From positions 32,001 through 96,000 of IMG/VR virus record IMGVR_UViG_3300026085_000093: a DNA stretch of 64,000 nucleotides. One strand, written 5' to 3'. Below are positions 27,052 to 64,000 of the stretch, piece after piece. A program made the translations under genes and the position numbers. The DNA is from a virus (lineage: Duplodnaviria > Caudoviricetes). Position 1 is the first letter of the stretch. Every line of letters starts with the position of its first letter. The notes beneath the pieces were generated by a model. The model was not told the DNA's origin, ran no database searches, and saw only the letters and a program-made list of their open reading frames with translations.

Positions 27052-27064
27052 ATGTGTCATAGGC

Positions 27065-27099: not shown

Positions 27100-27104
27100 A
27101 ATGG

Positions 27105-27151: not shown

Positions 27152-27161
27152 GAGGTATAAT

Positions 27162-32673: not shown

Positions 32674-33967
32674 ACGAAGTTTAAACAAGTGCGAAGGACT
32701 TGTCACGGCATTAGGAAAAAATTGTAGTATTGTAACTGATTTTGACCCTGCGCCCGATCATAAACATTTTATAGATCTACCACAAGAAGTTTTTATTTGT
32801 AAAGGATTTGACATTCTCGACATTACAAAACGCTTTCATCATGTAGACAGAATTTATACTATTAGTGAAAACTTACTTCCTATTCAAGCACAACTAGAAT
32901 CATTTTACGGCATTAAAAATATCAGTGCATTTGCAGCAGAAGTCTTAAGCAACAAACAGAAGTTTGACGACTTCTGTAGACAAATTGGTATGGATACATT
33001 AGTACCCAAAAGTATTACTCCTACTTTTTACAACCAACTCAAAACATTTAAAAACAAAGAAATGTTTAGTAAGCCAGACATTGGTACAGGAAGTAACGTT
33101 TTTTATCCAGGTGACGATGCAAGCAATCCTGTAATAGAATATAGAAGATGGAATAACATGCATCATTTCTTGGATCATATTAAATCTAAGAATATACACA
33201 ATGAATTTTTTGATTTTAACAGACAAGGTATACATGCACAACGTTTTAATTTTAAACCTTGTAAAATTATGTTTCAAGAATACATATGGAGTGAAGAACC
33301 TAGCATTAGTCCTTACGGCTATGTGAAAGATGGTAGAGTAAACATTGCATTCTATGTAAAAAATAGTAAGATAAAATATGGCGACAAATTAGATCATAAT
33401 AGCAATCCAATCGAAAGTCATAGTAAAAGTAAAAAAAGTGATATTGTTAGGGAACGTGCTGTATGGATTGTAACAGCAGACGAAGTTCCTGTAGACTTTC
33501 CGAAACTATGTCAATTCTTTTTACAAACTATTGTAGACAAACTAGCAATCAAGGATATGTTTTTTGCAGGTCCTGACTTTCATTTTAATAAAGGTAGAAA
33601 AGTTGCAATTGACTTTAATCCACGACCAGGACAATTTGTTAACATATTAGACAGATTGAATGATGGCAAAATTATTAGTAATATGTTGCAAGGAAAAGAA
33701 ATAAATTTACAAAAAAGATTATTGTGGGGATGTGCTGTATTAGAACCTGGAAAAGTTAAAGAGGTAAAAGACTTAGAAAATATTTCACCTTATTTGAATA
33801 AACAAAATACAGAAATAAAAAAGGGTATACGTATTCCAGAATTTCAAAATCTACAAGACAAAAATTTTAATGTAAATTTAGATATTACAGGAACAAATGA
33901 ACAAGAATTATTTGATAATTATATTTCTGTAAATAATTCATTAAGAGCAAATATATTGGTCGAGTAA
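32648..33967 (+). CDS. ATP-grasp ligase
   Basis: SNKQKF, KPDIGTGS, FQEYI, IDFNPRPG. Confidence 0.8.
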   Translation: MKTLIISHERSLNKCEGLVTALGKNCSIVTDFDPAPDHKHFIDLPQEVFICKGFDILDITKRFHHVDRIYTISENLLPIQAQLESFYGIKNISAFAAEVLSNKQKFDDFCRQIGMDTLVPKSITPTFYNQLKTFKNKEMFSKPDIGTGSNVFYPGDDASNPVIEYRRWNNMHHFLDHIKSKNIHNEFFDFNRQGIHAQRFNFKPCKIMFQEYIWSEEPSISPYGYVKDGRVNIAFYVKNSKIKYGDKLDHNSNPIESHSKSKKSDIVRERAVWIVTADEVPVDFPKLCQFFLQTIVDKLAIKDMFFAGPDFHFNKGRKVAIDFNPRPGQFVNILDRLNDGKIISNMLQGKEINLQKRLLWGCAVLEPGKVKEVKDLENISPYLNKQNTEIKKGIRIPEFQNLQDKNFNVNLDITGTNEQELFDNYISVNNSLRANILVE

Positions 33968-34582
33968 AGCTTTAAAGCAGTCTGTATCAAACTTTAAACA
34001 CACTACAAGCATAATACAATCATCAACTGTGCTGAAAACAGTGTGTCTTTTATTAGCATTAAAGTAAAACAAATTACTATCATCATACTGTGGTATTGTA
34101 TCTTCATAAACAAATTTTAAAAAGTGTTTATTACAATTATGTACAAAACCAATTAATCGTATTTCATCGTAATCATATGTTGTTTTATTAATATCATAGT
34201 GTTCAGGAAAAAACCCACCTTCATCTAATTTTAAAAAATGACAGCGTCCTAGCCATGGTTTAAAAGGTTCTAAAATACTTTGTAATGTAGGACTAGCCTC
34301 ATATACAGGTGTAGGCTTATCTATGTCATGATTGGTAATATTAGTATTATATTTTTTATTATATTCTGAAAGACTATCTAAATCAGGAATACCAGAAAGT
34401 CCGCCATCTAAACTAGTAACACTTAATCCCCATCTATTGTTTGGTTTTCTAGTGTTATATGGCTTCCAATCATCTTTGAATGGTGCAATTTCTTCCATAA
34501 GTTTGTCATGATTAAAAATATCTAATTCTAACCAATCTCCCATCATAGATAATCGTTGCATTGCAATTAATTGTTCGTTCAT
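33941..34582 (-). CDS. 2OG-Fe(II) oxygenase (Asp/Asn beta-hydroxylase-like)
   Basis: GGFFPEHYD (HxD) ... RHTV; ATGA overlap start 34582. Confidence 0.72.
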   Translation of the reverse strand: MNEQLIAMQRLSMMGDWLELDIFNHDKLMEEIAPFKDDWKPYNTRKPNNRWGLSVTSLDGGLSGIPDLDSLSEYNKKYNTNITNHDIDKPTPVYEASPTLQSILEPFKPWLGRCHFLKLDEGGFFPEHYDINKTTYDYDEIRLIGFVHNCNKHFLKFVYEDTIPQYDDSNLFYFNANKRHTVFSTVDDCIMLVVCLKFDTDCFKALLDQYICS

Positions 34583-35100
34583 ATCACTTCCCAAATATTT
34601 TGCTTCGTATAGAAGACTTCTACATCTTTTTCAACTAATTTACATAATCCTTGCGGAATAAAAACTTTTTCAACAACTTTATTTGTTCTAAAACTGTTTG
34701 GACTTTTATCAACTTCGCTATTTGTTGTAAAAACTATTCTTTTAGCATCTTTGCTTTTCGCATACTCAATTTGATAAGGAAGTATATGACCCCAATTAAA
34801 ATCATTATGCATCTTTTTGATACTTCCTGGTGCTTTTCCTCTGTATTCTTTAAGTGTTGCAGTGCGCAAACAAACTCTGTAACTATCTGGTATATAATCG
34901 TCAAAAGCGTGGCAGCCGCTTATGCTAACAATTTTATTGTCAACCCAAGTACACCACCACGCTTCATCTTTCCATTTGCCGAACTTCATAGACGCCTCTG
35001 AAACATTATTTTCTAATCCTTGTTCGGCACACGACTTCATAAAGTCATATATCTCACTAGGTAGATTGTCTACATAAAGGCGTCTAATTTCGAAGTTCAT
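34579..35100 (-). CDS. GNAT-like acyltransferase
   Basis: KIVSISGCH, RTATLKEYRG (motif A-like); 173 aa. Confidence 0.5.
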   Translation of the reverse strand: MNFEIRRLYVDNLPSEIYDFMKSCAEQGLENNVSEASMKFGKWKDEAWWCTWVDNKIVSISGCHAFDDYIPDSYRVCLRTATLKEYRGKAPGSIKKMHNDFNWGHILPYQIEYAKSKDAKRIVFTTNSEVDKSPNSFRTNKVVEKVFIPQGLCKLVEKDVEVFYTKQNIWEVI

Positions 35101-35864
35101 TGTGAAAAGTTTACTACTGCTTCTTCAAACATGGCTAGATTCTCTGGCGTGCCGCCAACATAAGTTGTTGTACCAGAAAATTTGTCTTGCCATTCTGGTG
35201 TCATAGATAGATTACCTACGATAGCACGAAGTTCTGTTGTAGTGTTGTTGTCTAACAAAACCGTGTTAATTGCATCAACAAAGCGGAAACCTAGATCACC
35301 TGCTTGGCTAAATGCAAAACATGTTGTATTGGCATCTTCTTCAATAGCAGATTGTCTAGTTGTAATAGTAAAGACTGTATCTGCATCACCTGCAAGATAC
35401 CCTTTTGTTGTACTACCGCTGCCTCCGAATGGTACCACTATAAACTTTGCACCAGTTGTTTGTTCTAGGTTACCTAAGAATTTTGCTACTGGCGCACTTC
35501 CCCATGTTGCAATTTTAACTTCTTTTCCGTTAAGATCTTCTAGTGTTGTAAATTCTCTACTACACATCATAGTTTCATATGTCATTAGAGCAACAAGTGT
35601 GTCTTCACTTACTTCTACTGATGGCATTTTAGGATCTCCAGGCCATTCACTACTCCAAATAGTAAGTGCATTGCCTTTTGCTAAATAGGTTGATGCTGTT
35701 ACAGGATTATTTGCTTGTACAAATTGATGATCAATTTTGTTTCCAATTTCAGTTAATACTTGTCTAAAAGCACCTTCTTCTGAACCTGGATTTACAATTA
35801 AAATTTCTGCGTTTGCAGATGTTGCAATAAACATTGCTGTTAGTGCTGTGATAAATTTTTTCAT
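35097..35864 (-). CDS. tctC: Periplasmic solute-binding protein, TctC/Bug-like
   Basis: Signal peptide (MKKF...ANA), VVPFGGSG...GDAD; adjacent to TctA. Confidence 0.6.
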   Translation of the reverse strand: MKKFITALTAMFIATSANAEILIVNPGSEEGAFRQVLTEIGNKIDHQFVQANNPVTASTYLAKGNALTIWSSEWPGDPKMPSVEVSEDTLVALMTYETMMCSREFTTLEDLNGKEVKIATWGSAPVAKFLGNLEQTTGAKFIVVPFGGSGSTTKGYLAGDADTVFTITTRQSAIEEDANTTCFAFSQAGDLGFRFVDAINTVLLDNNTTTELRAIVGNLSMTPEWQDKFSGTTTYVGGTPENLAMFEEAVVNFSQ

Positions 35865-35872
35865 TTTTTCTC

Positions 35873-37162
35873 CTAAGATAATATTATAACAGTCCTTACA
35901 AAACTTTCATAGAACAAGTCACTAAGGAAATATCCATAAATGACTGGGCTCGTATCGTAATTTCGTAGAAAATATCCTAGTACCATTGCAATCAGTATAC
36001 ATGCTATCATCCATTCGTGTATAGGAAAGATAACAACACTTATTACACTTATAGTAGTTAGGATCAATGTATTTGCATATACTCTATATTGCTTATAAAG
36101 ATACACTATTTGACCTAACAGATTAAAACCATACCAACTTAAAAGTAAACATATCAATGTCACTACAGGTATAAAGTAAAGTATAGAAGACAGTTTGTTT
36201 ACTGTGTTTTCTATATTAAATTGATAACCACTTTCTAACATCAAGTAGTATACAATTACTTCACTACCCGTAATAGGTATAGCAAGGATTAGCAAAGGCA
36301 ACAAACTAGATAATGCTCCGCTATTGTTAGCAGCCTCTGCGGCAGCAATGCTTTTAAGTACAGGCTTTTTAAAAAAGCGTTTTACAATGCCTGCACTAGC
36401 ATAACTACCAAGAATATTTGTTATGCCAGGAATAAGACCGCACCAAAATCCAATAAAGCTACCTAACAGGCTTGGACCAAATGTGCCTTTTCCTATTGCA
36501 TACTTACTTATCTTGCTAGGTTGGGAAATAGAAATGTTATGAATTTTTAGTATCTCAGGAAACAGATATAATCCAATCATTACACTTGCAAAAGGTATTC
36601 CTAAACTAAGATAAAAATTGTTAAAAACAAGAAACTGATCAAATGTAATTGGATCAATTCCTTGATGTGATATTAATCCTCCAAAACAAAACAGTAATAA
36701 TGTCAAAAGTTTATTCTGTTTTGTAAAAAATGTAATCATACATATTGCAACTAGTATTACAATTGTTTGTATAATACTGTTATAAAATTTGAATACATGC
36801 ATAATACTAGGCAAGGCAACTAAAAACAAACACATTGCAAATGCTACACCAACGGTGCTACTAATTGCGTTACTTGTTACAGCAAGGCCGCCTGCGCCTT
36901 TTTGAAACATTTTATGTCCGTATCTTGCTGTGCTAATTGCAGTAGCATCTCCGGGTATACCGTATAAGATTGCTGTAACACTATTAGTATAGTTAGTAGT
37001 AATAAGTATAGCAACATAACACGCCATAATATTAACCGCACTAGTTGACGCTAAAAACGGGTATAAGACACCAATAGCAACAAATGGACCAGCACCAGGT
37101 ACTAAACCGGCTAAAAGACCAGTTAGTAAACCGATACCACTCCAAATTCCTAATTCAATCAT
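35873..37162 (-). CDS. tctA: Tripartite tricarboxylate transporter large subunit
   Basis: GL.PG.G, YGIPGDATA..T, G.IPG, AAEAANNS; about 11-12 TM helices. Confidence 0.85.
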   Translation of the reverse strand: MIELGIWSGIGLLTGLLAGLVPGAGPFVAIGVLYPFLASTSAVNIMACYVAILITTNYTNSVTAILYGIPGDATAISTARYGHKMFQKGAGGLAVTSNAISSTVGVAFAMCLFLVALPSIMHVFKFYNSIIQTIVILVAICMITFFTKQNKLLTLLLFCFGGLISHQGIDPITFDQFLVFNNFYLSLGIPFASVMIGLYLFPEILKIHNISISQPSKISKYAIGKGTFGPSLLGSFIGFWCGLIPGITNILGSYASAGIVKRFFKKPVLKSIAAAEAANNSGALSSLLPLLILAIPITGSEVIVYYLMLESGYQFNIENTVNKLSSILYFIPVVTLICLLLSWYGFNLLGQIVYLYKQYRVYANTLILTTISVISVVIFPIHEWMIACILIAMVLGYFLRNYDTSPVIYGYFLSDLFYESFVRTVIILS

Positions 37163-38090
37163 TAACTATTATTTTTCTATCAACTACGCTGTTTGGTGTA
37201 ATCATTTCTTTATCGTTGTTGCTAATTTTACAACACATTTCTCTGCATACTTCAGGACATTTACCCCAAGTTAACAAGTTACTAAAGTTTAAAAATTTAT
37301 CTTTAATACTATCTAAACCTTCTGATATGTGTCCTAGAGAACTTATGTCGTTATCTATCCAACAACAAGGATAATAGTTACCTTGAGAATTTATATAATG
37401 CATATCGCCAGTATAACAGAAGGGTGCTAATTCGTCAAGTGTTTCTCTTTTTACATAGTCGAACCATTCTGGATTATAATAGTCTTTAATTTGACCATTA
37501 TTCGACATGTCATCATGTATAGTCCAACTTTTTTTAATTTTAAATTCATTCATGCCTATTTTTTTACTTAAGGCTATTGCTTCTTCAACTTGATGATGAT
37601 TGTGTTCAAAAACAATATACTTCCATCTAATCTGACATTTGCGTTTAGTAGTTGCTATAAGTTCAAAAAGTTCTTGTATTTTGTTCCAATTGCTGTTAAC
37701 TCGGTATATGCTATTAGTGTCTTGCAGTCCATCGATGCTAAGTTCAACAATACTAGACTCGGGCCATGTTTCTAGTACTCTTTGCCAAAACTCTTTTGTT
37801 TGCATACCGTTTGTTGTAACTTGCAATTCATTTGCCGAGAAAAAATGTTCTGAAATTTTGTGGAAATCAGGATGATATATAGGATCTCCTAAATTGCCTT
37901 GAAAAAATATGTAATCATATTTTTCAGGATTGGGCAAAAAATTTAGTAGCAAATCACTATCAATGTCTGACTTAGAACCAGGCCCGTGCATAGTTCTAAT
38001 ACATGCAGGACATGCTAATGGACATCTGTTGGTTAGTTCAATGTGCCAGCCTGTATATTTAAACTCGTCCAAAGGCCCATCTACGTTCAT
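37155..38090 (-). CDS. Radical SAM protein with C-terminal SPASM/twitch-like domain
   Basis: CPLACPAC, GNLGDP, TNG, SIDG, YPCCW; start ATG 38090 after GGTGG. Confidence 0.88.
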   Translation of the reverse strand: MNVDGPLDEFKYTGWHIELTNRCPLACPACIRTMHGPGSKSDIDSDLLLNFLPNPEKYDYIFFQGNLGDPIYHPDFHKISEHFFSANELQVTTNGMQTKEFWQRVLETWPESSIVELSIDGLQDTNSIYRVNSNWNKIQELFELIATTKRKCQIRWKYIVFEHNHHQVEEAIALSKKIGMNEFKIKKSWTIHDDMSNNGQIKDYYNPEWFDYVKRETLDELAPFCYTGDMHYINSQGNYYPCCWIDNDISSLGHISEGLDSIKDKFLNFSNLLTWGKCPEVCREMCCKISNNDKEMITPNSVVDRKIIVND

Positions 38091-38802
38091 AACACCACCA
38101 ACATTCTGTTTCACAATGATCTTCGAAATCGTTTAGTGCAGGACCATTTCTATTTTCACAAGACCTTGTAATGTCAAATAATTCCATAATATCATAGTGA
38201 TGATATAATTCTGCTACTTTCCTTTTATCATGACTAATAAAAGGTCTTACCATAGGAAACTTTTCGTCTTTTCCTCTCCAACTAGACCAATGGACTGCGT
38301 TTTCAGGTTCGTCTCTTTCTGCTGCCCTTGTATTCCAATCAGCATTAGAGATATCATCAGGATGTCCATCAAAATCAAACTCTATAGGTCTTGTGTATTT
38401 AGGATTACAAGGCCAAAAGTTTTTTCCTTCTTCTTCGGGAGGATTTGCTGTAATGCCTGCAAATGTAATATCAATATCTCTGTTTAAAATTAAATTCCTA
38501 ACAAGTTCTTCTTGTTTAGAATTATATTCTTCATATCTGCATACAGCACAATGTGTATCTTTGATTTCAATATTAGGATATCTATTTCGCATCCATTCAA
38601 TTACTCTTCTGGCAAATTTTATATTGTACGGTTTAACATCTGCTGTAGCAGTGATTGGTTGAATATATTCAATATCTATATTCTCATCAGTTATTTTTTT
38701 ACAAATCATATAAAGAATCATTGCACTGTCAGGTCCACCTGACAATTTTATACCAATTCGTTTAGTTCCATGTAAATCTATTGTAACTCCTTTTTCAATC
38801 AT
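38059..38802 (-). CDS. QueC-like PP-loop ATPase (7-cyano-7-deazaguanine synthase-like)
   Basis: LSGGPDSA PP-loop; RPF...DK; TRSC...HC..ECWWCYER zinc motif as in QueC. Confidence 0.65.
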   Translation of the reverse strand: MIEKGVTIDLHGTKRIGIKLSGGPDSAMILYMICKKITDENIDIEYIQPITATADVKPYNIKFARRVIEWMRNRYPNIEIKDTHCAVCRYEEYNSKQEELVRNLILNRDIDITFAGITANPPEEEGKNFWPCNPKYTRPIEFDFDGHPDDISNADWNTRAAERDEPENAVHWSSWRGKDEKFPMVRPFISHDKRKVAELYHHYDIMELFDITRSCENRNGPALNDFEDHCETECWWCYERRWAFGRV

Positions 38803-38821
38803 AACTTCTCCTATACACTAA

Positions 38822-39931
38822 TTAGTTTTTGTATTCATAAATCCACTCAAACCTGGGCTCTACATCTAAAAGGTGTTGTCCTCTAATATTGTCTAATGTT
38901 GTTGTGTAAGAATACAAATTGTGTAACAGTTCGTATTGTTTGTCTATGCTTATACTAAATAAATCAACTGCACTAGTTGCAAAATATTTTTTCCAATGAG
39001 AATAGTTTGTAGTTTCTAATATTTTTTGTTTTATATGTAAAGGTGTAATCAACGGATTTAGATACATAGGATCAAGAACTTGATGTCCAAGATCAATAGC
39101 GTGTTCTATTTTACTCTGCAAACTATCAAAATTATAGATACCATAAATGTTTGCAGTATAAATCCATCCAATTTCATTTGCATTAGGAAACGTTTTGTAA
39201 GATTTCCAATTATATAATGATTCTTCAAATGTAAATTTTCCGCCTCTAATGTATTGATACATCTCTCCATCAGATTCTACTGAAAAGAAAATATTGAGTT
39301 TATCAAATTTAGCAAACAATTTCTTTTCATCTTTGGTCAATCTATGTGTACCATTAGTGATAATCTGTAATGTTACGTTATGCTTGTTTGGAATACATTC
39401 TATAAACTCAAAGAATCTTGGATGCATAAAAGGTTCACCGCCTTTGATAATAACATACCTTAAAAAATCTAAACTAGATACAAATTTTATCATATCGCCA
39501 TCTATATTATCAAGAATCTTATTATTATCAAAATCGTCTAATGTAAAATTAACTTTATCTTTGAGTTGTCTATCTATTATCCAACTAGACGACTGTCCAG
39601 GATTACACATTCTACATTTGAGATTGCATAGATTGCCTATATCAATATCTAAAAATTCTATATCAAAATTTACCTGTTGACTGAACCAATCGTAATGATA
39701 TAAACGTCTACTTTGTTCGTTTCTCACTTCTCTATTTGTACAAGAAATGCACCCTTTCGGAACATGTTGATCAAAATCTTTTATAGCATTTGTTCTGTCA
39801 ACATTCAAAGAGTTGTAGTCAGTAAATTTTCCAAACTTATAAGTGCTATGGCCGCAAGGATTTAGGTTGCCTGTAGAATCTACAGATAGACCTTTATAAG
39901 CAAACCAGCAACTAGGTTTAGATTCCAACAA
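38822..39931 (-). CDS. Radical SAM protein with N-terminal SPASM/twitch-like domain
   Basis: SCWF...NPC...CISC; CNLKCRMC, GGEP, TNG; TTG start near 39931 (track start 40030). Confidence 0.88.
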   Translation of the reverse strand: MLESKPSCWFAYKGLSVDSTGNLNPCGHSTYKFGKFTDYNSLNVDRTNAIKDFDQHVPKGCISCTNREVRNEQSRRLYHYDWFSQQVNFDIEFLDIDIGNLCNLKCRMCNPGQSSSWIIDRQLKDKVNFTLDDFDNNKILDNIDGDMIKFVSSLDFLRYVIIKGGEPFMHPRFFEFIECIPNKHNVTLQIITNGTHRLTKDEKKLFAKFDKLNIFFSVESDGEMYQYIRGGKFTFEESLYNWKSYKTFPNANEIGWIYTANIYGIYNFDSLQSKIEHAIDLGHQVLDPMYLNPLITPLHIKQKILETTNYSHWKKYFATSAVDLFSISIDKQYELLHNLYSYTTTLDNIRGQHLLDVEPRFEWIYEYKN

Positions 39932-42053: not shown

Positions 42054-42055
42054 GT

Positions 42056-54276: not shown

Positions 54277-54302
54277 TATAGTTCTCCATTAATATTAGCA
54301 TA

Positions 54303-55490: not shown

Positions 55491-56892
55491 TAAATATATC
55501 TTTCATTTCAGGAAATGTTTCTGCAAATGTTATGCCACGTTGCTTGTCACATAAGTCTAAAAATTCTTTCATTTCAGGCAAACGTCTGCTCCAATCTTCT
55601 GATTCCATAAAGCTAAGAATACCATTAAGACGTTTTATTCCATATTCTGCACTACGAAATTGTTCGTATGTAACTTTACCTTTGTGCCAACTAGGAATAC
55701 CAAGTTCCCAATTTTGCTCCCACCAAGGATACCATGCTTCATACTTGCGTCTCGTTTCTTCTTTGAACCATTTGGGCAATACTTTTACGTTTAGATGCGC
55801 AGGCCAATAAACAAAGTGCTGACTAATACCACCTGCGCCGAAGGGCCACATGTTTATCTTTTTAAAACCTTGTTCTAATTTCCATTGAATAAAGTCTGGA
55901 AGATAATATACATTAAGTGCTTGTACTGCACATGCAATAGTAACTTCTACATTATCACTAGTTTGTGTATCTAAAATATGAAACACTTCTTCTTGACGTT
56001 TCCATTCGCTTGGATAACGAATGTAACTATTCATTTCTTTAATACTATCTATCGAATAGTGAAAACGCACAAGTTTGAATTCTCGCCATAAATCAAATAA
56101 ATCCTCTCTCCATTCAACTCCATTTGAGTTGTAACGTAGTTCAAGATCTTTTGCATAGCCCATTTTAATTGCATGTTCAAGTATTTCATAATGTTCCTCA
56201 ATAATAAGACTCTCGCCGCCAGCAAAATAAATCTGCTGCATACTTGGCATTTGTTCATAGAATTGTTCCCAGAACACAGGATTTTGTTTGTGCCAGTTGT
56301 AACTACTTCCGTTTGTACTACCTTTGTTTTCCCATTGCATAATTTCTTTGAGAGACTCATTTTTAACAGCAGGAAAAATTGCTTTCCAATCTTTAATCCA
56401 TCCTGAACTATCATGCGGTGAACACATTACACATGCAAGTTGGCATTTTGTTCCAAAACGTAAATCAATATATGCTAAGTTTGGAGGAACACTGCCGTCT
56501 TCATTTGTTTCTTGTAGAATTTTATCTACATCAACACGCTGACTCCAGTAGTCTGTTTCCCACATACGTTTACTACGATGACCTGCTGCTTCTTCCTTAA
56601 AACATTTTAAACAACTAGGTGGTTTTTCACCAGCAAGCATTTGCTTGCGTACATTCTTCATGTATGTGCTGTTCCAAGCACTTTGAAAGTCACTTACATT
56701 TAAATTGTTAGGTCGTCCTTCTTCATCTTTGAGAATACCTACTTGTCCGCCATGTTCTTTATCATTTGTTGCACCAACTGAACTTGCATTTGCTGTGCAA
56801 CATACCCGCATACTACCGTCTGGCCTTGTGCTTAAATGCACCCAAGGTAATAAACAAAATGTGTCGCTAATCTTTGTGTGTTTTGTATCCAT
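55483..56892 (-). CDS. Radical SAM protein with N-terminal SPASM/twitch-like domain
   Basis: FCLLPW.H...RVCC...CLKC; CQLACVMC, AGGE, NSNG, SID. Confidence 0.92.
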   Translation of the reverse strand: MDTKHTKISDTFCLLPWVHLSTRPDGSMRVCCTANASSVGATNDKEHGGQVGILKDEEGRPNNLNVSDFQSAWNSTYMKNVRKQMLAGEKPPSCLKCFKEEAAGHRSKRMWETDYWSQRVDVDKILQETNEDGSVPPNLAYIDLRFGTKCQLACVMCSPHDSSGWIKDWKAIFPAVKNESLKEIMQWENKGSTNGSSYNWHKQNPVFWEQFYEQMPSMQQIYFAGGESLIIEEHYEILEHAIKMGYAKDLELRYNSNGVEWREDLFDLWREFKLVRFHYSIDSIKEMNSYIRYPSEWKRQEEVFHILDTQTSDNVEVTIACAVQALNVYYLPDFIQWKLEQGFKKINMWPFGAGGISQHFVYWPAHLNVKVLPKWFKEETRRKYEAWYPWWEQNWELGIPSWHKGKVTYEQFRSAEYGIKRLNGILSFMESEDWSRRLPEMKEFLDLCDKQRGITFAETFPEMKDIFNE

Positions 56893-57145
56893 TGTTTATC
56901 GCTTTACAAAATTTTTTGCATATAGGATCAGGATTTGTTTCCCAACCTTCAGTATTAAAATGCTTACTGAATGCTTCACTATCTATTATAGCATCTAATC
57001 CATTTTTTGCAATAGAATTCCAATCTTTATTTAAACTTTTTATGTAAGGAGACATGTCAGGTTCAGTCAGTGTCCAGCAACATGGCCAGGCATGTCCGTC
57101 GGTATCTATAATAATGCCTTTTGTCCTACATTTAATTTTTGTCAT
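56867..57145 (-). CDS. Stand-alone SPASM/twitch-like domain
   Basis: KC...DG.AWPCCW...PICKKFC; no radical SAM core. Confidence 0.75.
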   Translation of the reverse strand: MTKIKCRTKGIIIDTDGHAWPCCWTLTEPDMSPYIKSLNKDWNSIAKNGLDAIIDSEAFSKHFNTEGWETNPDPICKKFCKAINNGYKTHKD

Positions 57146-57791
57146 ACCATTTCCATTCCCCTACTTGATCTGCCCAAGCAAAGACTTGTTCTTTCATTTC
57201 TTTATCTACAATTTTATAATCCCAATCTCTAGTGTTTAATTTTATGTCCATTTCTAATTTATTTTTTCTTGCTAATTCAATAGCTTTAGGTACACTTTCA
57301 TAATTAAACGTAAAAACTAAAAAGTCCCAACATACTACTGCACCCGATTTATTTGCAGCAATCATATGCTCCCATGCTCTGTCAAAATCTACATCAATTC
57401 TATATTTACTACTCTGTTCTGCTGTTATACCATCTATACCAAAATTTAAACGTAGTTGATCTTTCCAACGTTTTGCTATACTTACATACCAATCCTTCTG
57501 TCTTAGGCCGCCGTTTGTTGCTACTTGAACTTCTCTACCTGAAGCACATCCGTAATCTATCATTTCCTCTATATCAGGATGCATTAATGGATCGCCGTAG
57601 TCTCCGCAAAAATAAATTACCTTAACACCACTCGGTGTAGTGTCTATCATCTTCTTATAAGTTTCTAAGGGAAAATGTCTATATACTAATTTGCCCTCTG
57701 CATCTAACTCTGTTCTTGGACATAAAGGACATTTTGCTTGGCAGTAAGTTGTAGGACTAAATTCTAATGTTTCAAACTTTCTGTAATCCAC
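57132..57791 (-). CDS. Radical SAM core without an auxiliary domain
   Basis: CQAKCPLC, GDYGDP, TNGG, GIDG; paralogs continue into a SPASM domain at the point where this ORF stops. Confidence 0.85.
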   Translation of the reverse strand: MDYRKFETLEFSPTTYCQAKCPLCPRTELDAEGKLVYRHFPLETYKKMIDTTPSGVKVIYFCGDYGDPLMHPDIEEMIDYGCASGREVQVATNGGLRQKDWYVSIAKRWKDQLRLNFGIDGITAEQSSKYRIDVDFDRAWEHMIAANKSGAVVCWDFLVFTFNYESVPKAIELARKNKLEMDIKLNTRDWDYKIVDKEMKEQVFAWADQVGEWKWYDKN

Positions 57792-59116
57792 TAAACATAT
57801 TCCTCTAATTCAGGAAAATAATCTAACATTTTTTTATTGTTAATACGTTCACAGAGTTTAATATATTTTGTAGATCTTTCAGATAATTTTTCTTGACCGT
57901 TAAAATTATTTTTCATATAATTTAAACAATCATTTGTAAAGTATTCCCACCTGTCAATAAAATCTTTATTATTTGTCGACAGTTTTACTTTTTCAATACT
58001 GTCTTGCATTTCGTCTATACATCTTTGTCTAATAGAATCTGGTAATTCTAAACTAGATACAGGATTATCTAGTACTAGACTAGTATGAAACAATAAATCA
58101 TACTCTAACCAATTGTTTAAAATATCAGTCCAACGTAAAGCACTAAACATATTAAATGTTACAGTACCTTTTAGAATAATATTATTTAGATTGAAATTTT
58201 TTATTCTACGTAAGTTATTTTTTACAAGTTCAATATCTCCACGCATTCTAAAAAAATCATATGTATCAAACGATGCATCTATACTACAAACAATTTCTAC
58301 TTCTTTAAATTGCATCCAGTATTTTAAATATTTTGATATATCTTTGACGTTTAAATTTGTATTGTATACTAATTTTTGATCTTGCGGATTTTTACTTGTC
58401 ATATATTCTAGCCAGTCTATATGTTCTGGAGTGAGTAGAGGTTCGCCGCCTGTAAAATGAATCATAGACGCAGATGCAAGTAATTCTTTTATATCCTCTT
58501 TATAACTACTTTCGCTATTAAGAGCAACTTTAAATAATTTAGAAATATTTTTATGTGTAACAGGTTCGTATAAATCATCTACTTCTTTACCAACATCATA
58601 TGATGTTTCTTCATATATGTCAAAGGTTTCTTTATCAGTTAAACTTGTTACCCATAATGTACTACTATTCGGACCGCAATGCATACACTGTAAATTACAC
58701 AAGTTGCTAGGTCTTATTTCTATTCTTTCAAGATCAGTAAGTCTAGATTCGACTGGATTATTTTTAATAAAATCTATTAGGGCGTCTTTATCTTCAACTT
58801 GTCTTTCAAAATCACCAAAGAAATCCATTCTAGGAGATTTACTATTAGAGTCTTCTGCATTCCAACAACTTACACAATTTTTATTTCTTTCTCCGCAATA
58901 AAGATCATTTCTAATATCTTTATAGTCATCATTGTTAAAAAGTTGTGTAAAAGGTTGCTTCTTCCAATTACCTACACGTTCTCTACCTCTGTAACAAGTA
59001 TACACAGAACCAGACTGATCTAAGTCAGCATTTATATAAGGTGCAAAGCAAAAAGTATCAGGATTTAATCCTAATCTTTCTAATTCGCTTCGCATATCTT
59101 CGAGTGTTTTTATCAT
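57791..59116 (-). CDS. Radical SAM protein with N-terminal SPASM/twitch-like domain
   Basis: FCFAPY...YTC...CVSC; CNLQCMHC, TGGEP, NTN, SID. Confidence 0.9.
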   Translation of the reverse strand: MIKTLEDMRSELERLGLNPDTFCFAPYINADLDQSGSVYTCYRGRERVGNWKKQPFTQLFNNDDYKDIRNDLYCGERNKNCVSCWNAEDSNSKSPRMDFFGDFERQVEDKDALIDFIKNNPVESRLTDLERIEIRPSNLCNLQCMHCGPNSSTLWVTSLTDKETFDIYEETSYDVGKEVDDLYEPVTHKNISKLFKVALNSESSYKEDIKELLASASMIHFTGGEPLLTPEHIDWLEYMTSKNPQDQKLVYNTNLNVKDISKYLKYWMQFKEVEIVCSIDASFDTYDFFRMRGDIELVKNNLRRIKNFNLNNIILKGTVTFNMFSALRWTDILNNWLEYDLLFHTSLVLDNPVSSLELPDSIRQRCIDEMQDSIEKVKLSTNNKDFIDRWEYFTNDCLNYMKNNFNGQEKLSERSTKYIKLCERINNKKMLDYFPELEEYV

Positions 59117-60111
59117 ACGTCTTCGTATTCCATAGGATTGTGTTTTTCTAATATTTCTTCTGCTTTACAAAACAAAGGATCAGAATCATCTTTTCTAAAA
59201 ACCATATTATCATATCTTTCTGCATCCTTTTCTTTGATTACTATATATTCATCATGTTCAGGACTTAAAGGATTATCAGGAAAACACCCAGAAGGAATAA
59301 CAACAGGATCATATCCTCTTTCAATAAGATGGTATAGCAGCCTTTGTTTTTGTTCTTCATCTTTCCATTTTGTATGAAAAATATTTTCACAGTCTTTTGA
59401 AGCAAGCCATGCTTCTGTAAGATTGCCCATTCGCATACTCATTTTAATATAAGTCTTATCACTGTGCTTAATTGTATTATCAATAACAAATGCTAATTTA
59501 CTTTTACTTGGTCGTAACACACTTCTATGTCTGCGTTTAGCAAATCTAAATAATATAGATCTTTTGGTATCAACAATGTCATCTACACAATGCCAACTGT
59601 AATTAGTAGCAGGTATAGCATAAAAGAAGTTAGGTTTCTGAGGTACTTGACTGTGCATTTCTCCATGTTTGTCTACTGTCCATGCACCTTGATTACCGTA
59701 ATCAAAATAAATTTGACAAGTTACTAACCACCTAAAGTCTTTTAAATCATTGTGTGTTTCTATAAAACTACCGTCAAGGTCGTGATGATAATTTACATAA
59801 AAACTATCATGATCAAAATCTTTACCATAAATTACTTTTTTTAGTTTAGGCAATTCATCAAGTATAGTGTCAAATGCAGGATAAAATTGTTCTTGTTTTC
59901 CTTCATCAATACCGTCTTCATAATCTGCAATTTCTAATGGTAAAACATAATTATTTTCAGAAATACCTTTTGCTTCATGAGTGCCTTCGAGTTTTGCATA
60001 TTGATAAATTTTATCGTAAGGATACGTTTTATCTAGGTAAGAAAATGTCGCATCATTAAAAAACTTTTCTTTTGTGTAGTATGTAAACGGATCTGAATGT
60101 ATCTCTATCAT
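59113..60111 (-). CDS. 2OG-Fe(II) oxygenase (prolyl-hydroxylase-like) with an extra C-terminal domain
   Basis: ETHND (HxD), SWHCV, R.S. Confidence 0.72.
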   Translation of the reverse strand: MIEIHSDPFTYYTKEKFFNDATFSYLDKTYPYDKIYQYAKLEGTHEAKGISENNYVLPLEIADYEDGIDEGKQEQFYPAFDTILDELPKLKKVIYGKDFDHDSFYVNYHHDLDGSFIETHNDLKDFRWLVTCQIYFDYGNQGAWTVDKHGEMHSQVPQKPNFFYAIPATNYSWHCVDDIVDTKRSILFRFAKRRHRSVLRPSKSKLAFVIDNTIKHSDKTYIKMSMRMGNLTEAWLASKDCENIFHTKWKDEEQKQRLLYHLIERGYDPVVIPSGCFPDNPLSPEHDEYIVIKEKDAERYDNMVFRKDDSDPLFCKAEEILEKHNPMEYEDV

Positions 60112-60833
60112 ATTTTATCCTTCAATCTATCTAGTATTATATCAGAAAAAGCATCATGTGCTTCCTCAAGTGGATGCCCGCCGTAACCTATAGCATAATT
60201 GTTACGTTTAGCCCAATCTTCTAAACTATCGGTTTTTGGATCTAACAACCAAACTTTGTCACTCCAATCAATTTTATTATATATAGGACAACTATTTCTT
60301 AAATAGGAAAGATTATCAGGAAATATATCTAGATGTAGTTCTTTTAGTCCGTTTACCATAAAATAAGGTATATCTGCCAATCTTAAGGCTGTTTGAATTT
60401 GGTGTACTTGATATAAAAATTCTATACAGTTTGCCCTATAAGTTCTAACTAACACTGCATATTTTTTAAGTGCTAGATTTGTTTTACTATACTGGTTTGC
60501 ATGAAACATTCTCCATATAGTCCTATCATGATGTTTATCAATAGGTCCTAATTTTTGTAAAGTAACTTTTCTATATCCATCGGTTGTCTCTAAACTATCT
60601 TGTACAAAATGTTCAAATCTTGTAGGAGACGTCCATTGTATAACTGCTGCTTTAATATTTTCATCTAAATTTGCAAATGTAGTTCTTATAATCCTATGAT
60701 TACTGCCGCCGGGTGTTCCTAAATTTTTAAAATCTTGATTTAATTTTTTTCCTGCAAGTGCAGCAAAACATGTATTTTTAGGATCTCCTAATTCATCGCC
60801 GTATGTAAAACTGCATCCATTAAATAATATCAT
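60108..60833 (-). CDS. SGNH/GDSL-like hydrolase or acyltransferase
   Basis: NGCSFTYG, GGSN, GGHP; paralog of 16563-17201. Confidence 0.6.
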   Translation of the reverse strand: MILFNGCSFTYGDELGDPKNTCFAALAGKKLNQDFKNLGTPGGSNHRIIRTTFANLDENIKAAVIQWTSPTRFEHFVQDSLETTDGYRKVTLQKLGPIDKHHDRTIWRMFHANQYSKTNLALKKYAVLVRTYRANCIEFLYQVHQIQTALRLADIPYFMVNGLKELHLDIFPDNLSYLRNSCPIYNKIDWSDKVWLLDPKTDSLEDWAKRNNYAIGYGGHPLEEAHDAFSDIILDRLKDKI

Positions 60834-61897
60834 TTAAATTGCTCCGCAAATGGATCAAATTCTGCACCGCACTTCATAGCACAAACTTTTAATTTACCTG
60901 CAAAACAACTTGGCTTATCCCAACTATCTTGTATAGCGTCAAATATACCCGTTTCAAAAACTTTTTCTAATCCATTACGTGCATCTAGTTTAGTTTTATC
61001 TTCAATAAAATCCCATATCTGTTCTACCTTAGGATCTTTATGCCACCACTTGTACATACGTCCAGCAGTCCAACAACAAGGCAATGCTAATCCTTCTGCT
61101 GTTATAAACAGACTGTTTTCTTTTTTTACTTTACATATAACAGGAACAGCATTGTAGTATGCATCCATACTGCCATATTTTTCTATAATTTTATCCTGTT
61201 TAGTTAAAGCTTTGTTTTGATACTTTTCATCGGGCTTTTTTAGTTCAGTAGTTTCTTTGCCTTTACGATCAACTGCTTGGTGCGATTCTTTCTTTTTAGA
61301 ATCTTGTGTAATAAACCTGCCAGTTTTCTTTTTCATAAACTTTTCACACCCCCAAACATTAGCAAGTTTTTCTGCTTCTTCTACTTGATGTTGATTGTGT
61401 TCAAAAATAAGGAAATCCCAACGTGCTCTGCCACCAGCATCGATAAATGCTCGCATGTTGCGTTCTACATTGTCCCAGACAACACCCTGCCTGTATAAGT
61501 GATTAGTATCCCTAAGACCGTCCACGCTAAAAATAACAGTGCCCATTCTACCAAAGACTTGGGCCAATTCACGCCACCACGTTTCACTTTTTGCTCCTCC
61601 GTTTGTATTCATGCTTAACCACATATTAGGGTTATGCTTTCTAAAATATTTGAATATTTCAAGTGTATCTCGTGCAACAATAGGATCTCCTAAATTACCA
61701 CACATGTACATTGTGTCCAATTGTTTTATAAAGGAAGCATTAAATATCTTTACGCAATCTTCATAGTACAATTCATCAAGGTTAATATGAGGATTTATTC
61801 CTTCACCATTCATATTTCGATCACACATTGGACAACTGGCTTGACAGTTCTGTGTAACTTCTAAATGAATAGTTTTAATATCTTCATAATTATACAT
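60830..61897 (-). CDS. Radical SAM protein with C-terminal SPASM/twitch-like domain
   Basis: CQASCPMC, GNLGDP, TNGG, SVDG, LPCCW, VCAMKC. Confidence 0.92.
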   Translation of the reverse strand: MYNYEDIKTIHLEVTQNCQASCPMCDRNMNGEGINPHINLDELYYEDCVKIFNASFIKQLDTMYMCGNLGDPIVARDTLEIFKYFRKHNPNMWLSMNTNGGAKSETWWRELAQVFGRMGTVIFSVDGLRDTNHLYRQGVVWDNVERNMRAFIDAGGRARWDFLIFEHNQHQVEEAEKLANVWGCEKFMKKKTGRFITQDSKKKESHQAVDRKGKETTELKKPDEKYQNKALTKQDKIIEKYGSMDAYYNAVPVICKVKKENSLFITAEGLALPCCWTAGRMYKWWHKDPKVEQIWDFIEDKTKLDARNGLEKVFETGIFDAIQDSWDKPSCFAGKLKVCAMKCGAEFDPFAEQFK

Positions 61898-62117
61898 TAT
61901 CGTATACTAACTCCACATCCACGCCAGGGCCAACTTTACTAGGTAAATCACCATACTGATCGATATACCAGTGTATGACAGCACAATACCAGTTCCAACT
62001 ATTATGGTGTGCTTCTTTGTTAAACTGCCATATGTTGTTATTGGTTGCTTGCATTGTACTCAGTGCTCTTGCACATTCTAATTGCAACTGTCTAGTTGTA
62101 AACTTACTTAAATCCAA
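61890..62117 (-). CDS. Hypothetical protein (75 aa)
   Basis: Overlap-coupled on both sides. Confidence 0.75.
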   Translation of the reverse strand: MDLSKFTTRQLQLECARALSTMQATNNNIWQFNKEAHHNSWNWYCAVIHWYIDQYGDLPSKVGPGVDVELVYDNV

Positions 62118-63012
62118 TTAACATAAACCTCGTATACTTAGGTAATTCTCGCATACCCATATAACACAATTCACTCATTGGTGCCATTTGTTTAAATTCG
62201 TAAATATCATTTACACAATTTACGTGTTCTTTGATTTCAAAATAGTTGTTGCTTTGTAGCACAATTAATTTACCTTGTGGTATATTTTTATACCATTCTG
62301 CAAAGTTTTCTATATGTTCGCAACTGGTATTGATAATTGTATCTGGCGTATCGTAAAGCATACAGACACTACCGTCACTTCTAGATACAGGATAACTATG
62401 TCCGTCCCATTTAATTTCCATAATATCTTGTGTACACGCCTTAAACTGCCATTCTTCTTTTACCCAAGGCTTATTGAAAACTTCAGCAATATTTGCACAA
62501 GTAGGATCAATGTCAAAACTACGAATCTTTTCTACATTTACTTTACTCTCAAATAACATTGTAGCAAGTGTAGCATACCACCCTGCACATAAAAATACTG
62601 TGCCTAAATCAATTTTTTGTCTTTGTAATTCTTGTACTAACCAAAGTTTACTTTCAAGTTGTCCTCTACTAAAACAATCTGTGTCGTATTCAATATTGTT
62701 TATTTGTAGATTTTTAAACGCATCGATAAATCTTGTATCTTTAAATCTTTTCAATACTGGCCAAAGTTTATATGTATTGTTTTCTAATAATAACTTACGC
62801 AATTCTTCATCTTCGGCAAGTCTAAACAAACTATGTAAATTATTTTCCATCATTACTTTACGCAAATCATCTGTACTTCCACGTATGACAGTAGGAAGTA
62901 ATCTAAAGATACTACTCATATCTCTATCAATATATGCTCTACGCAAATCACTTAATCTAGTATCTCTAGGATACATCAATTCAAATCTATCAAGTAATTC
63001 ATGTGTCTGCAT
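62104..63012 (-). CDS. Rossmann-fold methyltransferase-like protein
   Basis: FLCAGWYA.L, RSFDID, INTSCEH. Confidence 0.6.
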   Translation of the reverse strand: MQTHELLDRFELMYPRDTRLSDLRRAYIDRDMSSIFRLLPTVIRGSTDDLRKVMMENNLHSLFRLAEDEELRKLLLENNTYKLWPVLKRFKDTRFIDAFKNLQINNIEYDTDCFSRGQLESKLWLVQELQRQKIDLGTVFLCAGWYATLATMLFESKVNVEKIRSFDIDPTCANIAEVFNKPWVKEEWQFKACTQDIMEIKWDGHSYPVSRSDGSVCMLYDTPDTIINTSCEHIENFAEWYKNIPQGKLIVLQSNNYFEIKEHVNCVNDIYEFKQMAPMSELCYMGMRELPKYTRFMLIGFK

Positions 63013-64000
63013 TAAACTTATCCTTTAGCCAATCAAAGTCATTAATAAGTTTTAATGCAGCAACGTTAGTTGCATTTTCTTTACCATATGCTGCTCCTGC
63101 TTTTGCACCTGCAATAGCATATTCGCCATACGGTTTGTCTACACCTTTTGTACACCAAATATCTAAACGTTCTTGTGTTTCTAAATCTTTTTGTCTATCA
63201 ATAACACCCGATGAAAGTTTACAACATTCTCTAAATGCTGATTTCCATGTTTCAAACGGTCCTGTGTTAAAACAAGTTAAATTTGATATTTGTTGTACAG
63301 CCTTAAATTTGTTTGTAATGCTTGTTGTCATGTCAGGCTTACTTGTATCCATATTAATAGTCAACATTCTCGGAAACAGTTTTAGTCCACCGTAGCCATA
63401 TACTAGATCATTAATTGGGTTTTGTGTACGCCATACATGCACCATATCTCTGTCCCAACGTGGAACACGATATTCAAAACTAAAATCATCTACAATTTGT
63501 GCATCACCATCAACAATCCAAAACATTTCAGTTTCGCAAAGTTTTGCTGCTTCAATGTGTGCTTGGTGAATGCCCTTTACTCCATGTACACGTTTTGCAT
63601 TTGGTACACGTTCTAGCAGTAGTTCATAATTTTCGTCTGCATTAGGTTCTTGATATGAAATAAACACAACATCATAAATTTTGTATTCGCTTGCAATAAT
63701 ATTCCAAGGCTTGTGGTTAACAACAAATCTGTGTTCAATTTCCTTTTTGGTAATAGGAGATTGTTTAGACAACAAAAACAATCCATTGTAACCTGTTTCA
63801 GAGCCATCTTTGTGTACAAATGCATGGTTTTGTTTTCTATCATATGTATTTGAATGATCAAAATACACATTAAATTTAAACTTGCTTGTATCAATATTAG
63901 GATCATCTGCATAAAACAATTCAGTTTTACTCATCTTAACTGCACGTAAATAATCTTCCCAAGATTCAACATTAAATCTATCGTATTGTGCAGGTCCACT
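62999..64000 (-). CDS. GT-A (GT2-like) glycosyltransferase-domain protein, 5'-truncated by the window edge
   Basis: Frame is open from 64000 to the stop at 62999; VFISYQEP.A..N, GI..AH, WIVDGD (DxD), YG.GG.KLF. Confidence 0.7.
   Translation of the reverse strand, partial: SGPAQYDRFNVESWEDYLRAVKMSKTELFYADDPNIDTSKFKFNVYFDHSNTYDRKQNHAFVHKDGSETGYNGLFLLSKQSPITKKEIEHRFVVNHKPWNIIASEYKIYDVVFISYQEPNADENYELLLERVPNAKRVHGVKGIHQAHIEAAKLCETEMFWIVDGDAQIVDDFSFEYRVPRWDRDMVHVWRTQNPINDLVYGYGGLKLFPRMLTINMDTSKPDMTTSITNKFKAVQQISNLTCFNTGPFETWKSAFRECCKLSSGVIDRQKDLETQERLDIWCTKGVDKPYGEYAIAGAKAGAAYGKENATNVAALKLINDFDWLKDKFNADT

Follow-up and report, generated by a model that had tools for sequence, protein, structure and literature searches.

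Why does a phage carry a long single-strand run of tailoring enzymes, many of them radical S-adenosylmethionine (SAM) proteins, and what do these enzymes modify? The question is raised by a 64,000-nucleotide stretch of viral DNA (Duplodnaviria; Caudoviricetes), referred to here as the window, which comprises bases 32001-96000 of the IMG/VR record IMGVR_UViG_3300026085_000093. This record is a single 236,366-bp virus sequence, classed as linear; CheckV estimates its completeness at 66%, which puts the entire genome at probably some 350 kb. An earlier note on this DNA, made from the letters alone, had described an array resembling a biosynthetic gene cluster with no known product and had proposed hypermodification of virion proteins, surface glycans or nucleobases. 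The phage origin stands, as does the dense tailoring platform, a block in which scaffold-building enzymes are lacking. The list of targets was too broad: a sugar-type substrate is favored and nucleobases are unlikely. The lack of a known product was also right, although this kind of region is already in the literature (PMC7029224, PMC5332604). Our tentative reading, held with slightly less than even confidence, is that the array is a modular factory that tailors sugars, varies between strains and serves a host-recognition surface, for which the fibre or baseplate proteins of the phage itself are the most likely candidates.

Layout, radical SAM content and promoters of the array

Positions 33941-64000 of the window hold 34 minus-strand open reading frames (ORFs) in the ORF listing, in line with the 35 or so mostly overlapping genes reported earlier, and 29 of their 33 junctions overlap, the remainder being two gaps of 0-10 nt and two of 19-26 nt (Table 1). 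GC and AT skew change sign at about 34 kb, which is what a strand switch there predicts. The array continues past the window edge, as had been supposed, and forms the distal end of an 85-kb minus-strand block (genome 65941-151481), in which the window is followed by another 22 kb of enzymes and then by 33 kb of structural genes. Altogether the array spans about 51 kb, begins at about genome 118 kb and runs downwards, and encodes about 50 soluble tailoring enzymes, including 15 radical SAM enzymes (rSAMs). The 22 kb past the window contain three more rSAMs (two with an N-terminal twitch module and one B12-dependent), a second amidinotransferase-like gene, a 2-oxoglutarate (2OG)-Fe(II) oxygenase, a second GT-A-like gene, a UDP-glucose/GDP-mannose dehydrogenase and an NAD-dependent epimerase/dehydratase of the short-chain dehydrogenase/reductase (SDR) type. 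At the transcriptional start of the block lie genes for a spike-like protein (DUF2345), a 4806-aa protein carrying a CBM_5_12 domain, a Collar-domain fibre and paralogous fibre-like proteins, and baseplate genes. At the opposite end, the array is convergent with an Mtd_N-domain fibre-type gene (window 30037-32013), and related contigs likewise have an Mtd_N/PTL_trimer gene at the cassette end.

Exactly 12 in-window ORFs combine an intact CxxxCxxC motif with a Pfam and/or NCBIfam radical SAM match, the number given in the earlier note; two of them (37155-38114 and 54303-55490) score slightly under the Pfam gathering score (PF04055) and are backed by NCBIfam and by paralogy. All-against-all BLAST divides the 12 into four groups, namely seven with an N-terminal twitch module (N-twitch), three short proteins with the motif near the N terminus, one B12-dependent enzyme and one singleton. 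The seven N-twitch proteins exceed the curated cut-off of NF033640 (N_Twi_rSAM; 170 bits, whole-protein score), that at 38822-40030 only marginally, and the whole fragment contains 11 members above this cut-off. In these proteins Pfam places SPASM at residues ~7-97 and then Radical_SAM at ~113-314. Their cysteines C8, C76 and C79 are invariant and C26 nearly so, all upstream of C123/C127/C130, and a GGE motif is invariant as well. The N-twitch paralogs are only 20-35% identical to each other, which points to old duplications. The single B12-dependent enzyme was correctly recognized before: 44692-46545 has the class B domain pair and a paralog outside the window (31% identity). Its best NCBIfam model is KedN5, at 191 bits against a subfamily cut-off of 700, and by its domains it is a probable C-methyltransferase. 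The fragment encodes 18 rSAMs in total, the remaining three being plus-strand genes at window 158-2327 and 18541-19776, of which two fall in NF033640 and one match has an internal TGA. At window 56867-57791, a 219-aa rSAM core and a 92-aa SPASM/twitch module are encoded by separate overlapping ORFs in different frames. The same split occurs in a relative (L085, 41-47% identity), which argues for a conserved two-gene arrangement or a programmed frameshift rather than an assembly error.

The 236-kb fragment contains six perfect TTGACA-N16-18-TATAAT sites, compared with 0.8 expected by chance, and each lies 6-191 nt upstream of a same-strand gene. Of these sites, three precede plus-strand genes, two of them window ORFs that start at 9240 and 22583, and three fall within the array, before the gene of the 392-aa core rSAM (rSAM-392) and, beyond the window, before N-twitch-507 and B12-rSAM-654. 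A generic promoter/terminator scan gave results no better than shuffled controls, and only the count of perfect consensus sites was informative. As far as sequence motifs can tell, these sigma70 promoters of its own suggest that the array is probably more than read-through from a late fibre operon. A T4-type TATAAATA precedes a fibre-like gene.

Conserved core, selection and cassette turnover

Comparison of the block proteins with 90-odd related loci revealed a collinear core in the order GT-A-like, methyltransferase (MT)-like (62104-63012), 75-aa protein (61890-62117), rSAM-355, N-twitch-469, N-twitch-387 and rSAM-392. The core recurs in more than 50 viral contigs with orthologs that are 55-89% identical, and variable genes are found between the core genes. 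IMG/VR holds at least 114 related stretches, and the N-twitch protein of 47692-48855 alone has 4531 metagenome homologs, many of them 70-98% identical and with Tara Oceans among the sources. Close homologs of the core enzymes number in the thousands in marine metagenomes, Tara among them, which indicates that the pathway is abundant in ocean viruses, under strong selection and costly to them in iron. Family counts were taken over 75 non-redundant loci (Table 1), in which N-twitch genes average 4.5 per 20 kb and FA_desaturase genes occur in 15.

A close relative, strain L028, is 93-97% identical to the window and gave dN/dS values of 0.03-0.14 for 17 genes; the array is under purifying selection. 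Pseudogene decay, which the earlier note had named as a finding that would speak against it, is rejected on these ratios, on the invariance of catalytic cysteines and motifs and on the thousands of metagenome orthologs. Even between such similar strains, entire cassettes differ: L028 has one more rSAM gene (338 aa), located between two N-twitch genes, and where the window has the 163-aa cupin (43044-43535) it has a 2.9-kb segment coding for a cupin-like protein, an rSAM of 568 aa and a protein of 252 aa. Contigs at least 99% identical to the array, from three aquatic metatranscriptome runs, tile much of its length. They are short and unstranded, and they fit expression of the array, with DNA carry-over as an alternative source.

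The earlier note saw no obvious substrate or precursor gene. It had overlooked the 75-aa ORF, which always lies directly upstream of a core rSAM gene and abuts it. The encoded protein is conserved from end to end and has an acidic C terminus, which makes it unlike a leader-core precursor, and it has no leader/core split, conserved Cys or repeats. Judged from its sequence and position, the 75-aa protein is a candidate adaptor, carrier or substrate; an atlas search with it returned nothing. It is tempting to speculate that the core is a hitherto undescribed, phage-borne radical pathway that builds a hypermodified moiety on a small carrier or a virion fibre protein, with rSAM and cupin cassettes diversifying the chemistry by strain, although we regard this specific version as unlikely. 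If true, such a pathway would do with enzymes what tail-fibre diversification does with sequence, and it would run in an oxic, iron-poor surface ocean although it needs as many as 18 Fe-S enzymes that are sensitive to oxygen.

What the array may modify

From these observations we infer the substrate class, the acceptor and each individual reaction. We envisage two layers. The conserved core would supply a GT-A-like transferase, the MT-like enzyme, the 75-aa protein and four rSAMs, each with an auxiliary cluster. The strain-variable cassettes would add more N-twitch rSAMs, B12-rSAMs for C-methylation, hydroxylases of the Fe/2OG or cupin kind, amidinotransferases resembling StrB1, a pyridoxal phosphate (PLP) aminotransferase-like enzyme, methyltransferases and an amidating ATPase of the PP-loop type. 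Host UDP-sugars may first be oxidized and dehydrated by the UDP-sugar 6-dehydrogenase and SDR epimerase/dehydratase of the array; amination, amidination, C- and O-methylation and hydroxylation would follow, with the radical enzymes carrying out rearrangements at unactivated carbons. The GT-A-like enzymes would finally move the product onto an acceptor, most likely a fibre or baseplate protein of the phage itself, and the outcome would be a strain-specific surface chemistry that affects adsorption or evasion.

A sugar-type substrate is favored because the UDP-sugar dehydrogenase and the SDR epimerase/dehydratase belong to the same co-oriented array, because the conserved core starts with a GT-A-like gene whose DxD is invariant, and because the amidinotransferase is nearest to StrB1, an aminocyclitol enzyme, and the best family of the B12-rSAM, albeit sub-threshold, is the sugar C-methylase KedN5. 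The PLP aminotransferase-like protein and the PP-loop ATPase point the same way, as do GT2 and GDSL proteins among the neighbors of a bacterial N-twitch rSAM. In an independent contig, a UDP-sugar dehydrogenase is found inside the rSAM core itself. A role in host recognition is suggested by the location of the array, flanked by fibre, spike and baseplate genes on one side and by an Mtd_N gene on the other, and by strains 93-97% identical that differ by entire rSAM/cupin cassettes, as in the host recognition cluster (HRC) of pelagimyophages. The chemistry is probably cytoplasmic, since array proteins other than TctA have no membrane segments.

Several observations weigh against sugar tailoring. 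The fragment has no match to PF00535 (canonical GT2) or to PF00483 (NTP_transferase, the family of sugar-1-phosphate nucleotidyltransferases), nor were Wzx, Wzy or a priming transferase found in it; the GT-A-like fold is common to nucleotidyltransferases as well, and the nucleotide-sugar genes lie outside the window and not in the conserved core. Asp/Asn beta-hydroxylase-type cupins and FA_desaturase genes in relatives would also fit protein or lipid targets, and bacterial Sel1/TPR fusions hint at protein substrates. A sequence search of the PDB with an N-twitch rSAM gave no match. The AlphaFold2 (AF2) model of 47692-48855 (mean confidence, pLDDT, 90) retrieved generic SPASM/twitch, viperin and MoaA relatives in Foldseek with TM scores of 0.35-0.42; the nearest folds are the peptide maturases CteB, SkfB, SuiB and anSME, and also viperin, BlsE and MoaA. 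These weak and mixed matches cannot tell peptide, nucleotide and sugar substrates apart. To our knowledge, no NF033640 member has a characterized reaction or substrate, and we know of no glycan demonstrated on such phages. A self-contained O-antigen or capsule cluster was considered and rejected: nucleotide-sugar and GT-A-like genes are present, but the only membrane protein is TctA.

The same sugar- or lipid-linked chemistry could instead be aimed at the host envelope (lipopolysaccharide (LPS), capsule or aminolipids), blocking superinfection by competing phages or re-adsorption of progeny. The three sigma70-type promoters of the array are of the type that also precedes replication genes and suggest early expression by the host RNA polymerase, a phage-encoded TctA transporter together with a secreted binding protein suggests functions at the envelope, and Asp_Arg_Hydrox cupins, a family that we take to include the lipid A hydroxylase LpxO, recur together with FA_desaturase genes in related loci. 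Glycosyltransferases in pelagimyophage host recognition clusters have been viewed in this way (PMC7029224). However, TctA apart, the array has no membrane segment and includes no flippase, polymerase, ligase or priming transferase, and it is embedded among virion genes rather than in an early or moron region; we consider an envelope target rather unlikely. We give a similarly low chance to direct protein modification, comparable to RiPPs (ribosome-made peptides that are modified post-translationally) of the proteusin kind, on side chains of virion fibre proteins or on the 75-aa protein. The mix of rSAM, B12-rSAM C-methylase, Fe/2OG hydroxylase and methyltransferase parallels polytheonamide-type tailoring. 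The four peptide maturases among the nearest solved folds, the conserved ORF abutting the core rSAM gene, the bacterial N-twitch rSAM fused to Sel1 repeats with TPR proteins alongside, and the peptide S-glycosyltransferases ThuS and SunS as best Foldseek matches of the GT-A-like protein all agree with such a target. On the other side, the 75-aa protein is conserved throughout, no RiPP recognition element (RRE)/PqqD, protease or exporter turned up, a peptide pathway leaves little room for nucleotide-sugar and amidinotransferase genes, and the weak fold matches include non-peptide enzymes equally. A classical RiPP cluster was rejected, with no leader/core precursor and with no PqqD, protease or exporter in Pfam scans, which did not cover the 75-aa ORF.

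A diffusible small molecule made during infection, such as an aminoglycoside-like or guanidino-type metabolite, appears improbable to us. The combination of a StrB1-like amidinotransferase, twitch-type rSAMs, a PLP aminotransferase-like enzyme and a KedN5-like B12-rSAM resembles aminocyclitol-antibiotic tailoring, and a similar trio in cyanophages (amidinotransferase, aminotransferase and rSAM) was flagged and labelled "antibiotic synthesis genes" (PMC12801897). Yet Pfam scans found no scaffold former (inositol-phosphate or 2-deoxy-scyllo-inosose synthase, non-ribosomal peptide synthetase or polyketide synthase), exporter or resistance gene, and the location beside fibre genes and the strain-level cassette swaps suit a surface structure better. 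Hypermodification of phage DNA or nucleobases is more improbable still, to the point that we would be surprised by it. It could draw on the QueC-like PP-loop ATPase and on the early expression suggested by sigma70-type promoters, but the QueC match is sub-threshold and limited to the C-terminal Zn motif, QueC-like genes recur in the rSAM cassettes of 12 other loci, and the oxygenase profile matches amino-acid hydroxylases, not TET/JBP. We know of no DNA-modification pathway with more than ten rSAMs, nucleotide-sugar dehydrogenases or amidinotransferases.

The sugar-tailoring reading can be compared with several known systems. The host recognition cluster of pelagimyophages and cyanomyophages is a large hypervariable region in which tail-fibre genes occur together with many enzymes of no apparent connection, among them UDP-glucose 6-dehydrogenase and glycosyltransferases as LPS-type sugar enzymes, and radical SAM cassettes; the whole region has a mean size of 44.6 kb (Zaragoza-Solas et al., 2020, PMC7029224). 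Our array shows the features by which such a region is recognized, namely contiguity with fibre genes (Collar-domain fibre, DUF2345 spike and Mtd_N flank it), sugar enzymes and rSAM cassette insertions and deletions relative to L028. In contrast, the present phage is not a pelagimyophage, its enzyme part alone measures 51 kb, 15 rSAMs rather than GT8-type transferases dominate it, and neither the collinear core nor the N-twitch family is described in that work. A T4-like environmental viral genome, TARA_ERS488813_N000010, has 12 radical SAM genes, which were considered alongside the Fe-S-related genes paaD, clpP and grx and viewed as Fe-S-cluster clients, without a proposed pathway (Nishimura et al., 2017, PMC5332604). 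The likeness lies in a marine, uncultured, large myophage with a dozen rSAMs, and a related 328-kb JGI contig has FeS_assembly_P (PaaD/SufT-like), aldehyde dehydrogenase and ClpP directly upstream of its rSAM cassette (L107:1084-3742); no A-type Fe-S carrier was found in the present fragment. Aminoglycoside and aminocyclitol tailoring shares the StrB1-like amidinotransferase, the twitch-type auxiliary cluster, KedN5 as best B12 family and a PLP aminotransferase-like enzyme, and it differs in that the twitch here is N-terminal instead of C-terminal, KedN5 reaches 191 of 700 bits and no cyclitol or scaffold synthase is present. The BtrN-type twitch rSAM dehydrogenase and the GenK-type B12-rSAM C-methylase serve as aminoglycoside comparison, and BtrN is absent from the best fold matches. 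For the acceptor, the closest demonstrated precedent is mycobacteriophages, whose phage-encoded glycosyltransferases reportedly decorate their own structural proteins (work by Freeman and colleagues from 2023), with few glycosyltransferases and no radical SAM chemistry.

The seven in-window NF033640 proteins share with the family an N-terminal Cys-rich twitch/SPASM module followed by CxxxCxxC; as the family is defined computationally, without a characterized member, membership gives no reaction or substrate. Already known, then, were the many rSAMs in marine T4-like viral genomes (PMC5332604), the rSAM cassettes of the HRC (PMC7029224) and the N-twitch domain order (NF033640). New here are the 51-kb, 15-rSAM scale, the different phage lineage, the definition of a collinear core, the data on selection and on swapped cassettes, and the sigma70-type promoters inside the array. 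Solving the pathway would provide a first reaction for the N-terminal-twitch rSAM family, tell whether phages decorate their host-recognition apparatus or the host through radical chemistry, and account for the swapping of enzyme cassettes here between strains that are nearly identical. The conserved core offers a small, defined target for heterologous reconstitution.

Individual enzymes, flanks and relatives

Table 1. ORFs of the in-window array and perfect sigma70-type promoters. Positions are those of the window unless marked as genome coordinates; loci are counted over the 75 non-redundant related loci.
Position	Strand	Feature	Length (aa)	Evidence	Loci
33941-34594	-	Fe(II)/2OG oxygenase-like, final gene of the array	217	Profile match, see text	
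34579-35100	-	Protein	173		
35097-35864	-	Secreted substrate-binding-protein-like	255	N-terminal signal peptide; adjoins TctA	
35873-37162	-	TctA-family transporter membrane subunit		PF01970, 193 bits	
37155-38114	-	rSAM	319	CxxxCxxC at residue 31; paralog of 60830-61897 (34%) and 57132-57791	
38059-38802	-	PP-loop ATPase, divergent QueC-like		SGGPDS and C-terminal Cys motif	12
38822-40030	-	N-twitch rSAM		NF033640, 171 bits (marginal)	
39918-40577	-	Protein	219	No family match	
40574-41161	-	HxD...H-motif protein	195	Motif only; no significant family match	
41139-42053	-	Class I SAM methyltransferase		Methyltransf_23, E 3.6e-7	
42056-43054	-	Methyltransferase-like		Methyltransf_31, weak; N terminus 32% identical to 49908-50390	
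43044-43535	-	Cupin, Asp/Asn beta-hydroxylase type, strain-variable cassette	163	PF05118 (Asp_Arg_Hydrox), E 7e-4, below cut-off	10-21 per cupin family
43532-44209	-	Paralogous cupin	225	30% identity to 43044-43535, E 8e-11; dN/dS 0.04	10-21 per cupin family
44112-44699	-	Redoxin/AhpC-type thiol peroxidase-like		PF08534, E 4.6e-13	
44692-46545	-	B12-binding rSAM, class B		B12-binding and Radical_SAM domains	about 14
46517-47695	-	Core rSAM (rSAM-392)	392	Orthologs up to 87% identical	57
47692-48855	-	Core N-twitch rSAM	387	NF033640, 407 bits	
48842-49915	-	N-twitch rSAM	357	NF033640, 231 bits	
49908-50390	-	Protein with CPFA motif	160	Homologous to N terminus of 42056-43054; no family match	
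50347-51120	-	Probable Fe(II) oxygenase	257	H101, D103, H231 invariant in 12 orthologs; no PDB match	21
51098-52054	-	PLP-dependent aminotransferase-like	318	Profile matches HisC-type aminotransferases, E 3e-4; D174, K202 invariant	9
52017-53237	-	N-twitch rSAM	406	NF033640, 225 bits	
53230-54276	-	StrB1-like amidinotransferase	348	PDB 1bwd, E 1.9e-25, full length (residues 37-346)	10
54303-55490	-	N-twitch rSAM	395	NF033640, 250 bits	
55483-56892	-	Core N-twitch rSAM	469	NF033640, 416 bits; orthologs of at least 50% identity in 63 loci, maximum 89%	
56867-57145	-	Free-standing SPASM/twitch protein	92	PF13186; start overlaps stop of upstream rSAM gene	
57132-57791	-	rSAM core without auxiliary domain	219	PF04055, E 4e-11	
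57791-59116	-	N-twitch rSAM	441	NF033640, 234 bits	
59113-60111	-	HxD...H-motif protein	332	Motif only; weak PDB matches	
60108-60833	-	DUF6071 protein		PF19547, 31.9 bits	
60830-61897	-	Core rSAM (rSAM-355), 12 Cys	355	PF04055; orthologs up to 86% identical	47
61890-62117	-	Conserved core-cassette protein	75	Orthologs 51-75% identical	29
62104-63012	-	Core methyltransferase-like	302	Atlas clusters with Methyltransf_31	33
62999-64000	-	GT-A-like, 3' part; precedes MT-like gene at core head	854	Continues to 65563 (L001:999-3563)	37
9187-9215		Perfect promoter			
22519-22547		Perfect promoter			
47701-47729	-	Perfect promoter, TTGACA-17-TATAAT		6 nt upstream of rSAM-392 start	
Genome 29865-29893		Perfect promoter			
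Genome 99105-99132		Perfect promoter			
Genome 107759-107787		Perfect promoter			

The remaining assignments of the earlier note fared variously. Four of its approximately seven HxD...H oxygenases have support beyond the motif (43044-43535, 43532-44209, 33941-34594 and 50347-51120), 40574-41161 and 59113-60111 show the motif only, and no seventh was identified. A profile of ten orthologs of 33941-34594 matched L-proline cis-4-hydroxylase (4p7w, E 6.5e-6) and beta-hydroxylases, with H132, D134 and H184 invariant. All three methyltransferase-like genes were recovered, through Methyltransf_23, Methyltransf_31 and atlas clusters, and the PLP enzyme is moderately supported. The amidinotransferase was likewise confirmed: its membership rests on full-length similarity and a C-terminal Cys motif (GGVHC near the C terminus), the next PDB matches after StrB1 are HsvA, SxtG and AGAT, and a paralog lies outside the window. 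The GNAT (34579-35100) and the SGNH protein (60108-60833) stay at the level of motifs, the former having no Pfam, PHROG or PDB match and the latter matching only DUF6071. The QueC-like call holds weakly: 38059-38802 scores 21.9 bits against the Pfam QueC cut-off of 22 (PF06508), aligns to profile positions 146-207 only and has a weak NAD_synthase match. QueC proper was rejected on this sub-threshold score, and the sequence is more that of a putative PP-loop adenylating enzyme. TctA, the only block protein with TM-like segments, is secure, whereas the supposed TctC (35097-35864) offers only its signal peptide and a single, insignificant PDB match to a tripartite tricarboxylate transporter (TTT) substrate-binding protein (E 0.65), and is a possible TctC by sequence; the small subunit TctB of TctABC was not found.

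The glycosyltransferase was upheld as a GT-A-like domain through the model of a paralog. In the 854-aa protein this C-terminal domain (62999-~63700) follows six tandem repeats of ~115 aa. It is 34% identical to the paralog L002:2304-3242, whose AF2 model (pLDDT 84) gave Foldseek matches to the GT-A transferases ThuS/SunS, BcsA, RmlT and TarP with VIA Z of 8-10, and D64-x-D66 is invariant in the family. The repeats follow the pattern ...TEMFW...F.FD.YF.H.N.YD...NH.F.H...YNG..L.SK...EIEHRF... and may be degenerate transferase modules, as by eye they resemble the glycosyltransferase core minus DxD; hhalign of a repeat against the GT-like profile aligned to N-terminal extensions only and was uninformative.

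Judged by its sequence, the fragment is that of an uncultured, huge marine phage. The family-B DNA polymerase (PolB) has its nearest counterparts in cultured jumbo phages, namely Phosso (50%), Atu_ph07 (46%), Vibrio phage 2.275.O and GAP32, and megablast of 25 kb against cultured phages gave no nucleotide match. Membership of the "moraphage" jumbo lineage was rejected, since this is a separate, Bacteroidota-linked group in whose description rSAMs are not discussed (PMC12619734). A core rSAM returned only three distant matches in tblastn against cultured phages; remote N-twitch rSAMs are carried by Vibrio phages K566/K567 and Ralstonia phage RsoM2USA. A single-protein search of genome contigs retrieved only metagenome-assembled genome (MAG) contigs, several of them probably mis-binned phage. 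In an Elusimicrobiota MAG contig (L022:9188-11194), one protein joins an N-twitch rSAM to three Sel1 repeats, and its gene is flanked by those of TPR proteins, a GT2, a pair of GDSL hydrolases, a B12-rSAM and an rSAM/SPASM protein; by its gene content, this locus is a bacterial counterpart of the enzyme association described here. An exact-product look-up found no such Sel1-rSAM fusion on record. An Oligoflexia contig carries three rSAMs and a homolog of the PLP-like protein.

Searches with ten proteins of no known family against PHROGs yielded nothing useful, and homologs of a 721-aa protein were uninformative. The fibre part of the block is headed by the 4806-aa ORF (L003:141-14561; genome 125141-139561, minus), which combines the CBM_5_12 carbohydrate-binding module with an FG-GAP repeat and is a possible acceptor or giant fibre that binds the receptor. 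Facing the array end, window 30037-33967 (+) encodes the 658-aa protein with the N-terminal Mtd_N (major tropism determinant) domain and two ORFs without an assigned family. Further upstream, window 25963-28490 (+) encodes an AAA_5 (MoxR-like) ATPase and then a DUF2201 metallopeptidase/VWA protein, and the same DUF2201 protein is found near rSAM cassettes in nine other loci.

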